The notes: generated from the sequence alone by a model not told the origin. Shown: positions 9,665 to 47,530, numbered from the stretch's first letter. The stretch: 64,000 nucleotides of DNA from Octopus vulgaris (GCA_951406725.2 OX597818.1:102486001-102550000), one strand, 5' to 3'. Translations and numbers: made by a program.

Positions 9665-9953
9665 TAGAATTAGATTATAGGCATGTGTATGGTTGCTAAA
9701 GATCTGCTCGGTGCTGATAGGTAAGATATTGTAATTGATATTGATGGCACATTTTATTATCTTTTCGAAATGGGTGAAATATACCGTTATATGAATTTAG
9801 AGTATATAATACACACACTGACACACACACACACACACACATATATATATGTATATATATTCATATATATATGTGATATATACACACCACCCACATGTAT
9901 ACAATGTAGGCAATCATCGAATTTTTTGTTTGTCTTGTTGTCGAGAGAGGCTC

Positions 9954-10046
9954 CCTTTCTTTCCTGATGAGAAGATTACATAATGCACTCTTTATTCCTT
10001 TGGAATGAAAACATGCTGTCTTCGAAACATATGTCGAGAGTAAAGG
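9954..10046 (+). ncRNA. Type I hammerhead ribozyme with enlarged stem II
   Basis: ctttc-CTGATGA-gaaga...tcttc-GAAA-catatg-TC-gagag; stem I ctttc/gagag extended by ccttt/aaagg; palindromic stem III; GUC triplet. Confidence 0.8.
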
Positions 10047-11439
10047 AATTTTGTTAACATCTTCGTTCGACTCCATTCTTTCATTTATTCATATACAATA
10101 CACACATTTCTGCACATGAACCCGGAGTTTCTACCCTTGACAGGTCGCTTCAACCGTGTTTCTGGCGTGAATTTGCTACCCAGGTTTCGGTTAAACAAAT
10201 TTTCCATGCTGACGATAAACATAGGATAATTCATTCACCTACTTATATATATATATATATATATATATAAATATATATATATAAAGAAAAACGATGCTTA
10301 ATGATAACAGACGTCATTATCTTGATTTAAATGAAAATCAACGTGACTTATTTCTAATGATGTCACAAGTAATTCCAAGAGGTGGACCTAGAGCTCACAT
10401 TGCTATTGCTGCTCAAGATATGACTTAACTTTATGAGCATTACAAAATTGATTTTAAAGTTAAAACACCATAAGACAAAACGTAAAATCCAGGCCATATT
10501 TTAACTTTATCCAAACGTATGTAGGTACAAAAATGGAAAGCCGTTAACTGCAGAATAAAACTGGGTATATAAATCTCTGTTCTCCATAATTATTACTTAA
10601 TTAATTTATACTTTATTATACATGTGTGCGTGTGTGTGCACGCGCGTGCGCAAACTCATACGCGTGTGCGACTACATAAAGAGACTGAGAAACCTAGACA
10701 GAGAAAAATTGAGATTTGAACGGCATTTTCAGGTTTATTCTTTAGTTTAATACCTTATTAATGTTTGAAATCTGTCGTTGAGTGAAACCTAAGATGCACG
10801 ATCAGCATTAAAAATTTATAAATCTCTGCTGCCAGGTCAATATGATATCCCTCAGAGAGCGGAAGGGACGACTATTCTTATTGCATCCTTTCATTAGCGA
10901 CAATATATTTAACATTAACCACCTCAAACTACTTCACTGTTATTAATTGCCATACACATACGATAACATTTCTGCACAGCTGGAGAATGTTCTAAGCGTG
11001 TTTATAACAGGCATAATTAATTTGCGTATAAAATATGCTCAAAATTGGATATATACAAAGGCTCTCTCTAAAACAGGTTCTTTTAATTAGCGAAAATCAG
11101 CTAATTTCAAGAATCAGTATTAGTGGTTGAAGAAGTTAAGTTACTTGACCCTATCACTTGTTTAATAGACCTATGAATAAATAAAGCAAGAAGCTCCTTC
11201 AGTGTAACAAAATGAACATTATGACTGTACAATATACTCTATAAGTCATACAGCTTTCTGCTTCCCAGCGTCTTAATAAAGCTAGAAGTAGAATAACCAT
11301 AATGGGAAGGATTCTTCTTTGACTGTTTAACTTGTTCTCGTATCATAATGTATTCTTTCTAACGTTGCTCTGTATTCAGTGATATGCGCGGTTACACTTG
11401 CATAAAACTTTTATTGGGTCGGTTTTCCTTTCGATAAAG

Positions 11440-11560
11440 CCACCAAAAATCTTCTTCCTCTGTCTCTCCTAGATTGTTCCTGTTGTCACATTCCCTATTG
11501 TTACCATATATTCAAGGATATTTCTTCTTATATGAAGACCTGGGAACCAGACACGGTTAT
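11440..11560 (-). pseudogene. RTE-like LINE C-terminal fragment
   Basis: Translates to HIRRNILEYMVTIGNV...ERQRKKIFG, similar to the RTE motif GHVMRR..LEHLVTTGK.EG.R.RGR.R.K. Confidence 0.4.
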
Positions 11561-12851
11561 TGCGCTGTAGTATGGGATTATATGAACTTTTGGTAATTAT
11601 CAAATTACACAGTCACCAAAAAGCATTGCTTCTCTCTGACCAGATTAAAATGGACGGTTTTTACTTAAAGCAAACCGTACCTTCTTGAAATGCATCACAT
11701 TGAACCAGAGATGAGGACTATGCGATGATCTGTCATAAATACATCTTCCTTGTCAAGTGTTTTGTAAGCAATATACTAGATATATAAATTATGGATACCT
11801 GGTGGCTAACAGAATAAAGTATATAAAATAGAATAAAACCGAAAGCCGTTTTTGTATATTTCCGACGAACAATTCTAGACTATCCACCTTTATGTAAGAC
11901 AATCAACTCTCGAGGACGATCGCCTACGTGAAAAACATCACAGCCTTCGCTGTGTATACTGTCTTTAATTCAGTAAATTAACTCGTTTGAGAGTTAACGT
12001 AGAACGTAAAGTTGAATGCAATTCGATCGTTTACTTTGAAATTCTTTCTTTTCCTTACGGGCATTGTTCAGGAATATTCTGTGGTATCCTAACAACATAC
12101 ATCGTTCAATTGTTGTCACATACAAGAATTAGAACAAAGAAAGCACAAATTGATTAACAGTCAAGGAAATCGGTTATGAAGTTACAAGCTGTAGAATATC
12201 CTAGCGTAGAAGTTGAATACGAAAAGCATGGAATTTTAAAACTGATTGAGTGGACATAATTTGTTAAGTACAGGTTTCTGACATAATCTGTTAAGTACTT
12301 TGCTTTGCAAGTAAAGTTTAAGAGAGTTAATTTGACAGACAACGTTCGCAAGTTTGTTCGCTAATTTTGAATAACCTTTTCACGGTAGGGTATTTTATCG
12401 TTTTCATGCTGAGAGATGATTTGAAAACTTTTATGGATATCGGACCACATCATTGAAATTTAATGCATACCCACATACAAATAAACTTCAGATAGACCCA
12501 TTCATTAAGATTAAATGTATACTCATAGATAAATATACTTCAAATGAACCCACTCTGGCTCCATACACAAATATGATACGTGCATATATACATATCTAAA
12601 TAGATATACCTATACATTAATTCACCTGCACACACTCTCGTAGATAAGTATTTAAATTTATATTCATATTTCTACCTCTACCTATCTAGTCCCCTTCTGT
12701 TTCTCAGGGTATACATTCATATATATATATATATATATATATATATATATATATATATATATATATATATGTATGTATGTATGTATGTATGTATGTATGT
12801 ATGTACGTATGTATGTATGTATGTATGTATGTATGCATGTATGTATGTATA

Positions 12852-44464: not shown

Positions 44465-45360
44465 TATCATAAGTTGAAGACGGGAAGGATGACTTCCCTT
44501 TGCAAATACTGACAGGACACAGATAGTGTGTCTATGGCCAGCTGGAGGAGTGTGTCCTCCTGGGGCTAAAAACTACAGTAGCATCCACCCTTAGGGATTA
44601 GCCATATTGAAATGGCAAAAATACGTCACGATATATATATATATATATATATACACATATAATGGGAGAAAGCGCTAATAATCTGAATCATATGATCTGA
44701 ATGATATGATATATATATGTAAAAAATGTTATATATAAATAAATATCTATAAATATGAACCATCCGATCTTCTGATTACCTCATTTCTTCTTTCTAATAC
44801 ATATATACATATATATATACATATATATATATATATAAATATATATATATATATATATATATATATATATATACACATGTACATATGTAGGTACGTATGT
44901 CAAGGGATCCAAGTGCAGAAAGTTTGTAAGCTTCGAACTTTTTTGCTGCTATTATAGACGACAAAAACATGGCGATATAGTATAAAACGATTTTATGAAC
45001 AAATAATTATTTGCGACAGAAGCAGAAATAATATGTAATAAAAGTTAACATTATTCCAACTTAAAAGAGGATGCTATGGTAGGACATAGAATACTACCAT
45101 AGTTACTATGATGGCTGAAATCACGTTATCTGATAACTATCGTAGTGTATTAACATCGTAATTTACACATCGTATGGCATATTGAAATCAGAAGAAATTT
45201 CGATAACCTCATTTTGAACGCACGCTAGCAAAGTAATGATTGTTCCATACTTGGTAACATACATAGAAGTAGCCTTCCTAATCTCCAGTTCTTATATTCA
45301 TAACATCTTTCAATTTGTCAAATATATCTTTACGTCATCGAGCGTGCGTGTATATATATA

Positions 45361-45793
45361 CTCTCTTTTACTCTTTTACTTGTTTCACTCATTTGACTGC
45401 GGCCATGCTGGAGCACCGCCTTTAGTCGAGCAAATCGACCCCAGAACTTATTCTTTGTAAGCCCAGTACTTATTCTATCGGTTTCTTTTGCCGAACCGCT
45501 AAGTGACGGGGACGTAAACACACCAGCATCGGTTGTCAAGCAATGCTAGGGGGACAAACACAGACACACAGACACACACATACATATATATATATATATA
45601 TATATATATATATATATATATATATACACATATATACGACAGGCTTCTTTCAGTTTCCGTCTACCAAATCCACTCACAAGGCATTGCTCGGCCCGGAGCT
45701 ATAGCAGAAGACACTTGCCCAAGATGACACGCAGTGGGTCTGAAGCCGGAACCATGTGGTTGGTTAGCAAGCTACTTACCACACAGCCACTCC
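45361..45793 (-). mobile_element. Full-length SINE family 1
   Basis: Near-identical reverse complement of 22109-22525. Confidence 0.92.
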
Positions 45794-47269
45794 TTTTTAA
45801 ATATCTTTATGGGATTTTTTCGGAAGCTTCGTAATGCTTGGAAATAAATTTTCCTCGTCTTATATTTAATTTTGGTTTCAAATGATTTTGGAATTTTACT
45901 ACTATAAAAAAAAATATCTTGTAATGCGTATATATAGCTTTCATATATAGTGTTTAAAGCGTTTTGTTTCTAATTATTGATATTGGTTCAGGTATGCTTA
46001 GTTTTACTTTAATTTAATCCGATTTATCTATCACTATATATAATTCAAAACTAATTGTACAATTTCTCACATACAAAATTAGACGTTCTCATAAAAAATA
46101 TAACGCATTTAGCATTCTTGCGTATAAATGTCTCAAAAGATTCTATAATCATGTATAATCTATGTTAATCTTCTTGTCTTCACATTATTTCTTTCATTCA
46201 TATATATTCTTTTTATAAACTATATCTTGTAATCTTATAATCTACATAGTTGACGCTTATACTTGTCTGTAAATACTCTGAAGACGTGACTCATCAACAT
46301 ATCAGACCTTTGAAGAATTACACTCACATATTAAGTCGTTGAAAGCAGATTCCTGAATCTAATATAATTCATGCATATTTAATGTAATGAAGACTTACAT
46401 TAAATGTGTATGTGAAGCTAAGTAATATATCTCTCATTCTATCTATTTAAGCATTTATGAATATAACAAACAATCTATTCATCTATTTATTCAACTATGC
46501 ATATATATATATATATATATAAAACTTCAAATGCTTGCCTCGCTTTAAAGTTTGTTGGCCTCTTTAACAATTATATATTATATATTCGCTACATCGGAAA
46601 TATGCAATAGCTCCAGAACTACCGTCTCGGCTAAACTATGGAGCCCTAGTAATCCGTTATAGCACTTAACTAATCGTTTAGATCACCTACGAACTACACA
46701 CCCATAAGTTGTACATATATATATATATATCATAAAAAGTCAAAACAACATTTAGTTCCAAGCATTACGAAGCTTCCGAAAAATCCCATAAATACTCGCG
46801 ATTGAAAGCTGGGTAATGAGAAGATATTTAAAAAGACTCGACATGAATTGCGAATTAGATGATTTGAAGATGAAAATCTTAAATATATTTTCTTCTATCT
46901 TCAGCGCAATATATATCAAATATGTACTAAGCAGTGTTTATAACAAAGCAGTGTCCATAACAAAGCGATTTTGCACGTCTATACACAAACACTTGCAAGT
47001 ATAGATTCGAAAGAGTCAGTACTTGTGGAGGTTTTTTGTAGCTTCGTAATGCTTGGACATTAAATCAGTATGTAGGTATGTATGTACGTATGTATATATA
47101 TATATATATATATATATATATATATATATATATGTATGTATGCATGTATATATATATATATATATATATATATTTAACAATGAGGGAGATAAATTAATAT
47201 TAATTTTAATATCAATTTAAAACCAGTAGTCCAGCATACAAAAATCTGAGAAATCAGAGAAAATTCTAA

Positions 47270-47530
47270 TATATGTGTATATTGGCAGGGCTTACTGCTA
47301 GGGAGTCGGCCGTATGCTAGAAATAGACCATCAACGATCAAACTACAAGGAAATTCTCTAGAGGAAAAATACAGCGAACACCAGAACCAACTTTGGCGGG
47401 CATGACAGATGAAAATTTATATTAAAAACAGAATTTCCTCTAGAGAATGTCCTTGTAGTTTGATCGTTGATGGTCTATTTCTAGCATACGGCCGACTCCC
47501 TAGCAGTAAGCCCTGCCAATATATACATAT
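47270..47530. repeat. ~97-bp near-perfect inverted repeat with ~65-bp spacer, within a TA-flanked insert (47175-47530)
   Basis: attggcagggcttactgctagggagtcggccgtatgctagaaatagacc... and its reverse complement at 47433-47530. Confidence 0.92.

Follow-up and report, generated by a model that had tools for sequence, protein, structure and literature searches.

We analysed a 64,000-nucleotide stretch of the Octopus vulgaris genome (GCA_951406725.2 OX597818.1:102486001-102550000), referred to below as the window, with positions counted from its first letter. The window has a GC content of 33% and contains 121 (TA)n tracts of at least five units. Two repeat elements, A (42301-43830) and B (43868-44632), lie side by side in it, each carrying type I hammerhead ribozymes and each built of two inverted arms bounded by TA repeats (Table 1). 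They adjoin within 42110-44653, probably in what was originally one TA tract, and the tract at 43831-43867 is common to both.

Hammerhead ribozymes in the window

A strict type I hammerhead descriptor gave six matches in the window, compared with a mean of 0.055 (maximum 1) in 200 block-wise dinucleotide shuffles of the same sequence. Pairwise alignment of 18 segments showed one convincing relation, between B and a copy at 17.6-17.9 kb (z 37); three further pairs at z ~5 are AT-rich noise, and A, B and the element at 9.9 kb (C) have no significant mutual similarity. A first-pass annotation of this DNA had placed at least three unrelated hammerhead-bearing elements at 9.9, 42-43.8 and 44 kb, and these results bear it out. 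It had also spoken of a single family, which does not agree with the alignments; judged by sequence, the elements are several unrelated families, not one.

In a relaxed, scored scan that permitted one core mismatch, with 100 shuffles as background, a decayed core with one such mismatch at 46904 (-) scored 12 against 0.01 expected per shuffle, and the strict match at 24377 (+) is borderline (score 7, 0.41 expected). Another decayed core, at about 17930 (-), sits inside the old relative of B. The relaxed descriptors rejected candidate cores at 50844 (+), 6409 (-), 18200 (+) and 18402 (-), which leaves the cores at 46904 and ~17930, and the borderline one at 24377, from the several decayed cores proposed earlier. 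The sequences at 18200 (+) and 18402 (-) are convergent CUGANGA...GAAA-like motifs 200 nt apart.

When 42300-44640 was scanned with Rfam Hammerhead_1 (RF00163, gathering score 34), B alone was matched: its complete copy at 44081-44125 scored 32.2 bits (E 1.5e-5), below the gathering score, and a partial copy 25.2 bits. The A hammerheads were not matched. Among the whole-window Rfam matches listed (150 of 275), only microsatellite-driven miRNA and similar families appear.

Anatomy of elements A and B

Element A consists of two arms that are built from the same 490-nt unit and meet at their 5' ends, with a 3-nt AAA microhomology at the inversion junction. The left arm outruns the right by about 115 nt, forming a one-sided tail that ends at (TA)n, and its 5' end lies 21-24 nt past the predicted cut. 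The two hammerheads of the right arm are 490 nt apart (C3 at 43120 and 43610), with predicted cuts after 43210 and 43700. Helix II of the A hammerhead is made up of a 4-bp base and a 19-bp hairpin, and stem III has 3 bp with a palindromic tetraloop. In element B, one untemplated base separates the arms. The tail arm starts 17 nt past the predicted cut, exactly at the foot of the extended stem I, and has a tail of 47 nt; the inverted arm begins 2 nt before the hammerhead C3 and lacks most of the 5' strand of stem I.

Both elements are partial tandems without an open reading frame (ORF), each with an inverted 5'-truncated arm and a one-sided tail. The longest stop-free frames of the circular units span 49-66 amino acids, and unit GC is 37% in A and 42% in B. 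Direct repeats within the arms measure 224, 327 and 203 nt, those of the tail arms being 224 nt (A) and 203 nt (B). Because the arms hold fewer than two units, a TRF listing of tandem repeats missed both elements. All four outer ends of A and B lie at (TA)n, a preference seen within this window. Li 2026 calls a retrozyme locus active when it has two consecutive complete hammerheads (10.64898/2026.07.22.740005); the right arm of A has two in its 1.67 units, and B has one. The A right arm could thus release a monomer, whereas B at this locus could not.

The old relative of B has a short inverted arm (17979-18031, 79% identity) and ends away from long TA tracts. Identity between B and this copy is 77% at positions predicted to be paired and 64% at unpaired positions.

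Folding and cut-site phase

The circular A and B units fold far better than shuffled sequences (z -6.3 and -8.4, respectively), and in both the hammerhead (sense) strand folds better than the antisense strand. Computed stabilities indicate that the palindromic stem III is a weak hairpin and forms a stable intermolecular duplex, as expected for double hammerheads (PMC4209133). Helix II measures 68 nt in A and 53 nt in C, whose stem III is also palindromic.

The tail arms of A and B begin 17-24 nt past the predicted cut, with a chance probability of 0.4% for these arms or 1.4% if either arm is allowed; the pattern was noticed post hoc and has n=2. In the predicted folds of A, B and E (an element described below), the tail-less 3' end lies within a multibranch domain that a helix of 9-10 bp closes. 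These domains have no significant sequence similarity and are candidate recognition structures for a reverse transcriptase (RT).

The A unit in sequencing contigs

The A+B stretch, or part of it, is present in 20 of the 24 sequencing runs listed, which come from four organisms and 10 studies and none of which is recorded as an RNA run. We examined the A monomer in the contigs of four runs (7083, 15585, 141 and 42 contigs). An end-to-start joint of the monomer was found in all four, and the share of contigs that continue into unlike sequence was 0, 0, 0.01 and 0.05. The A unit is closed and high in copy. Contig depth does not give copy number and was not read that way.

The ribozyme core is conserved. 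None of the 40 A substitutions displayed (27 more were undisplayed) affects the invariant hammerhead core, N7 being variable. Positions 43131 and 43190 show compensatory changes, and with the majority letter at 43194 the 10.1-11.1 pairing is re-established. On the fold predicted from the window copy, 18 of these substitutions are unpaired, 15 keep a pairing and 7 break one, compared with 13.8 breaking substitutions expected (P 0.005). A joint from 43162 to 43211, the first base after the predicted cut, occurs in two of the four runs; with a 25-nt side and a 3-nt ambiguity, it is a hint only. In metagenome scans, the A motif had no matches and the B motif had five, all by chance and without a hammerhead.

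Palindromes, TA tracts and the head-to-head plan

Window self-BLAST defined a set of nine short-spacer inverted repeats. In five of them, a homology-defined outer end lies no more than 1 nt from a TA tract of at least five units. By comparison, of all positions outside such tracts, only 1.6% are 5 nt or less from one. The other four, at 17.9, 21.7-23.4, 26.5 and 45.8/46.8 kb, end elsewhere, the ends of the 21.7-23.4 kb palindrome stopping 12 and 40 nt short of TA. The presence of palindromic inserts in or near (TA)n, reported in the first-pass annotation, is borne out. The sequence at 26493-26618 is a 126-nt imperfect palindrome of microsatellite-like sequence around a TA core, without a hammerhead.

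Four inserts in TA, E, F, G and K, share the head-to-head plan and a one-sided overhang, and an inverted 5'-truncated copy is present in A, B, E, F and K. With arm identities of 98, 89 and 78% in E, F and G, respectively, the layout is old and recurrent and not a read artefact. No hammerhead is present in the retained part of E. G could be a PLE-type pair (PLE, Penelope-like element) or a Tc1-type miniature inverted-repeat transposable element (MITE) beside another fragment; its terminus is reminiscent of Tc1. The tailed longer arm is the left, minus-strand one in six of seven head-to-head inserts (A, B, E, F, G and K), and the insert at 21.7-23.4 kb has the opposite arm polarity; the bias alone is not significant. 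A candidate shared 3'-end motif, CAY(Y)CTA, was present at 3 of 15 ends and in 8 of 144 TA flanks, and was dropped as weak.

PLE protein fragments

The segment 22805-23014 (+), within the old insert at 21.7-23.4 kb, is 69-72% identical to two Octopus RT proteins (O. sinensis and O. bimaculoides). Both carry RVT_1, and the DKG motif typical of canonical PLEs is present in the longer protein; we take these proteins to be Neptune-type. The remnant at 9140-9796 (-) follows, by eye, the thumb, linker and CxCX5C region of the Hydra clade, and no search confirmed this: a protein search with 9386-9796 returned nothing, and a HMMER search returned three bacterial cadherin-repeat proteins, which are spurious. 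A protein search with 22431-22781 also returned nothing. The segment 50230-50445 (+) is a possible endonuclease C-terminus by motif resemblance only, unconfirmed. Of the four Penelope-like fragments proposed earlier, one is supported by search, one by eye and one by motif resemblance, and no counterpart of the fourth was recovered. Pfam, run on 299 of 522 filtered stop-to-stop frames and eight read-through fragments, gave no RT or GIY-YIG match, a PurA frame being the sole clear match. An autonomous PLE ORF (RT plus GIY-YIG) is absent from A and B, and elsewhere in the window only decayed PLE fragments are present.

Origin of A and B

We consider it probable that A and B are hammerhead-bearing retrozymes, placed in TA tracts as head-to-head tailed pairs and likely copied and inserted by the RT and GIY-YIG endonuclease of an autonomous PLE. 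They are likely non-LTR retrozymes mobilised in trans by a TA-targeting PLE, the helper being most likely of the Hydra clade or Neptune type. The idea of non-autonomous hammerhead units set head-to-head in TA tracts and linked to PLEs, already present in the first-pass annotation, is in keeping with the anatomy of A and B, their lack of an ORF and their TA ends. It is further supported by the TA-bounded insert with inverted arms that bears an RT fragment, by the remnant that looks Hydra-like by eye and, by analogy, by the Hydra-clade PLEs, which target (TA)n, have a similar stem III and occur in Octopus (PMC8557442).

In such a scheme, an arm of more than one unit would be transcribed and its hammerheads would cut, likely as a double hammerhead formed through the palindromic stem III, giving a unit-length RNA that may be circularised. 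A PLE protein would bind the structured RNA and nick both strands of a (TA)n tract, and cDNA would be primed at two internal sites; the distance between them, 47 nt in B and ~115 nt in A, would be left as the tail. The two cDNAs would then grow toward each other and their ends would be joined, through 3-nt microhomology in A and with one untemplated base in B, creating the fold-back in DNA. The insertion steps are modelled on an Anolis PLE, the purified protein of which nicked AT-rich DNA in vitro on both strands and extended each of them. Its two start sites were internal to the RNA and adjacent, and they define the tail (PMC11167929). This two-strand nicking and two-site priming make it likely that the fold-back is a DNA product of integration and no part of the RNA unit. 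The earlier term 'fold-back RNA elements' is thus misplaced, since the repeat unit is not palindromic and the inversion would belong to the insertion. An older proposal attributes the inversion to self-priming on an antisense template (PMC3846280).

A bolder version holds that octopus has several very high-copy retrozyme families with long helix-II hammerheads, which escape standard screens and are inserted by PLEs from ribozyme-cut RNA. Its basis for a ribozyme-cut template is that the tail arms start just past the cut, and we offer it only tentatively. In the Anolis work, hammerhead cutting was dispensable in vitro, and no RNA reads ending at the cut were found (PMC11167929).

Several observations weigh against a PLE-inserted retrozyme origin. 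Some concern the RNA: the A hammerhead fold lies 4.6 kcal/mol above the minimum free energy (MFE), the C hammerhead is not the MFE structure (z -0.18), and of 85 predicted pairs compared between B and its old copy, 56 are unchanged and just 11 are kept through change, compared with 18 that are broken. Others concern insertion. One-sided overhangs measure 47 nt in B, 46 nt in F, ~101 nt in E and ~115 nt in A, and the A tail exceeds the 30-40 bp described for PLEs; between the tail-less ends and the TA target there is a match of 2-5 nt, whereas the start in vitro is reported to be non-homologous. The architectural likeness of A and E comes without significant sequence similarity (z 1.1-1.3), and homology between them was rejected. 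Three 12-mers of the units had no matches in the Craig 2021 supplement (PMC8557442), the Hydra-1_Obim sequence differs from A and B on reading, and no sequence link between A, B or C and a PLE was found. Finally, a strand-changing joint occurs in none of the five joints listed for the A contigs of the four runs, and a TA run in none of the 24 loose ends shown (160 more unshown). Pairing and TA targeting are therefore documented in this window only, although contigs of this kind drop rare variants.

The units might instead be truncated pseudo-long-terminal-repeat (pLTR) ends of coding PLEs without an independent non-autonomous life. Truncation at the 5' end is usual in PLEs, which have inverted copies and carry their hammerheads close to the 3' end (PMC8557442); inverted arms of a similar kind are present in the 21.7-23.4 kb insert that contains the RT fragment, and C, D and K, as single short pieces, are compatible with this origin. 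However, the periods of 490 and 353 nt in A and B are too short for an ORF, and the A monomer is self-closing in four of four runs with almost no run-on into other sequence. We judge this explanation unlikely for A and B, the only ones shown to be ORF-less closed units; C, D and K may simply be the 3' ends of PLEs that encode proteins. Slightly less probable again is mobilisation of tandem retrozyme transcripts by a TA-targeting long interspersed nuclear element (LINE) of the R4/Dong, RTE or Tx1 type, with inversion by twin priming. The absence of poly(A) or a common LINE-like 3' end at the arm ends, the recurrence of the same one-sided overhang in E, F and K, and the status of hammerheads as a PLE trait (PMC4209133, PMC8557442) all speak against it, even though R4/Dong-like remnants appear to be present at 36.9-38.3 kb, Dong-R4 families are recently active in O. 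vulgaris (PMC13282606) and the distance on tandem RNA from the outer end of one arm to the inner start of the other, 48 nt in A and 98 nt in B, is permitted by twin priming.

The high copy number and closed unit of A would also suit tandem arrays, and no strand-change joint is among the A joints listed, as might be expected if A and B were satellite-like amplicons arising at the DNA level, with palindromes formed by fold-back repair at fragile TA tracts, or were MITE-like. That variation spares the ribozyme core and predicted stems, that folding is strand-asymmetric, and that the arms, in contrast to terminal inverted repeats, have unequal ends and an overlap of hundreds of bases, makes this very unlikely, even though the terminus of G is reminiscent of Tc1. 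We give hardly any credence to the palindromes being assembly or read chimeras. Arm identity is 98-99.5% in A, B and E, and the junction present in the window is unseen in the contigs of the four runs, but the same layout occurs with arms just 78-89% identical, and arms have differences of their own and stop precisely at TA tracts.

For animal retrozymes, the mobilising enzyme has so far only been proposed (PMC7229834; 10.64898/2026.07.22.740005): Cervera 2020 named PLEs as a strong candidate (PMC7229834), and Li 2026 tied PLEs and retrozymes by co-occurrence and phylogeny (10.64898/2026.07.22.740005). ORF-less units with the PLE-specific inverted arm and tail in (TA)n would tie the two by mechanism. 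If the bolder version is correct, A and B would provide integration-site evidence that PLEs mobilise retrozymes, with hammerhead cleavage shaping the template in vivo, and such families would keep supplying hairpins of 200-700 bp to an animal whose RNA is known to be heavily edited. Since the family is young and abundant, the retrozyme-PLE tie can be tested through its insertion ends.

Other features of the window

The remaining features are collected in Table 1. K has a hammerhead with a 6-bp stem I, a 9-bp helix II and one core mismatch, and a third copy of its arm (93-96% over 46 nt) lies at 45795-45852, directly after a SINE-like repeat (SINE, short interspersed nuclear element). The family to which that repeat belongs is about 430 nt long with an internal (CA)/(TA) microsatellite, and its six copies are 67-97% identical. 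At least two further SINE-like families are present (4265/8610/27697/48995 and 16799/34661/37439/60209-60809). A tRNA-derived SINE origin of the hammerhead units is unsupported, ARAGORN reporting no tRNA genes.

Directly past the TA tract that ends C, a 47-aa frame at 10285-10425 (+) matches PurA (Pur-alpha) in Pfam (E 1.2e-9) and resembles a decayed retrocopy or exon. Two fragments at 36900-38300 resemble R4/Dong-type LINE C-termini in their motifs, with no Pfam support; (TAA)n arrays at 38347-38668 adjoin them. A decayed frame at 52846-53208 (-) resembles the N-terminal helix-turn-helix of a Tc1-type transposase, with only a weak Pfam HTH match (E 0.025).

Table 1. Features of the window (positions from its first letter)
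Feature	Position	Strand	Description
A, left (tail) arm	42301-43016	-	714 nt; 1.46 copies of 490-nt unit; one complete hammerhead (C3 42637)
A, right arm	43014-43830	+	817 nt; 1.67 units; two complete hammerheads; end at (TA)n
A, hammerhead	43112-43218	+	stem I 8 bp; helix II 68 nt; GUA cut site
B, left (tail) arm	43868-44422	-	556 nt; 1.57 copies of 353-nt unit; ends at TA tract shared with A
B, hammerhead	44081-44125	-	sole complete copy in B; C3 44119; RF00163 32.2 bits
B, inverted arm	44424-44632	+	209 nt; ends at (TA)n
Old relative of B	17615-18031	-	72% identity over 310 aligned nt; decayed hammerhead
C	9883-10243	+	one arm only; hammerhead C3 at 9964, cut predicted after 10035; (TA)n at 3' end
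D	24322-24436	+	115-nt insert between TA tracts; borderline hammerhead (C3 24377)
E	47174-47526		head-to-head in (TA)n; arms 98% identical; tail ~101-109 nt
F	30100-30525		AT-rich; head-to-head in (TA)n; arm identity 89%; 46-nt overhang
G	6211-6725		TA-bounded; inverted arms 78% identical; 288-nt overhang
K	46731-47067	-	head-to-head; (TA)n at left end; hammerhead decayed (C3 46904)
Strict type I hammerhead matches (C3)	9964, 24377, 43120, 43610	+	strict descriptor
Strict type I hammerhead matches (C3)	42637, 44119	-	strict descriptor
Predicted multibranch domain, A	43300-43388		predicted fold
Predicted multibranch domain, B	44240-44325	-	predicted fold
Predicted multibranch domain, E	47200-47320	-	predicted fold
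Old TA-bounded insert	21736-23404		~300-nt inverted arms; PLE RT fragment; later SINE-like repeat 22106-22526
Decayed PLE ORF remnant	9140-9796	-	by-eye comparison with Hydra-clade consensus, stops read as X
Possible PLE 3' fragment	50225-50870	+	decayed hammerhead-like core 50844; fails descriptors
~430-nt SINE-like copies	14563-14897, 22106-22526, 31197-31353, 36516-36664, 40892-41333, 45363-45794		self-BLAST

Comparison with known systems

Hammerheads in pLTRs, the head-to-head layout, tails and (TA)n targeting are all published for PLEs (PMC8557442, PMC3846280, PMC4209133). Each single ingredient is thus already known, and the combination is fitting rather than startling. A 2014 study described hammerheads paired on opposite strands at distances of 100-700 bp (PMC4209133), pLTRs of 193-218 bp have been described (PMC3846280), and the O. 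bimaculoides Hydra-clade PLE Hydra-1_Obim is listed with a (TA)n preference and a hammerhead (PMC8557442, Files S1/S2). The O. vulgaris repeat annotation includes 31 recently active Penelope-like families, and the word 'ribozyme' is absent from its main text (PMC13282606). In the open-access literature, with Repbase, Dfam and the O. vulgaris TE library unsearched, we found no paper on octopus retrozymes or on retrozymes with the inverted-arm-plus-tail signature; A and B may already stand in repeat libraries as unknown repeats or SINEs. Possibly new are retrozyme units that bear the complete PLE insertion signature, hammerheads with a long helix II that Rfam does not pick up, and the start of the tail arms 17-24 nt past the predicted cut, seen in A and in B (n=2).

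Metazoan non-LTR retrozymes (PMC7229834; 10.64898/2026.07.22.740005) resemble A and B in being non-coding tandem units of 150-450 (up to 972) nt, 350-390 bp in mussel, with a type I hammerhead and a GC content below 50%, and they are proposed to be PLE-derived and PLE-dependent. They are described as dimers to long arrays, whereas the A and B arms hold fewer than two units, and, unlike in A and B, neither an inverted arm nor a tail or a (TA)n target is mentioned in the parts of these accounts consulted. The long helix II (53-68 nt) further sets A and C apart from the non-LTR retrozymes described there.

PLE insertions share with A and B the partial tandem, the adjacent inverted 5'-truncated copy and the one-sided tail (PMC8557442; PMC3846280). 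Hydra-clade PLEs have the same (TA)n target, a hammerhead near the 3' end and a similar stem III, and in Penelope-13_HM a 5'-truncated copy lies inverted, so that each strand carries a hammerhead; these PLEs encode RT and GIY-YIG in ~2.1-2.7 kb, whereas A and B encode nothing (PMC8557442). Pen2a of Adineta vaga (PMC3846280) and Anolis Poseidon (PMC11167929) have two ~200-nt direct repeats, an inverted copy and an optional tail in head-to-head arrangement, and trans-mobilisation through pLTRs is reported for PLEs of this type (PMC3846280, PMC11167929). Compared with these, A and B carry a structured spacer of 150-270 nt in place of the ORF, and a tail of up to 115 nt. Non-autonomous algal Chlamys PLEs such as MRC1 are, like A and B, derivatives with pLTRs and head-to-tail copies, and unlike them they are mostly without hammerheads and have a recognised autonomous partner (PMC8557442). 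MITEs and DNA foldback elements have symmetric terminal inverted repeats around a unique core, in contrast to the unequal, internally tandem and coreless arms of A and B.

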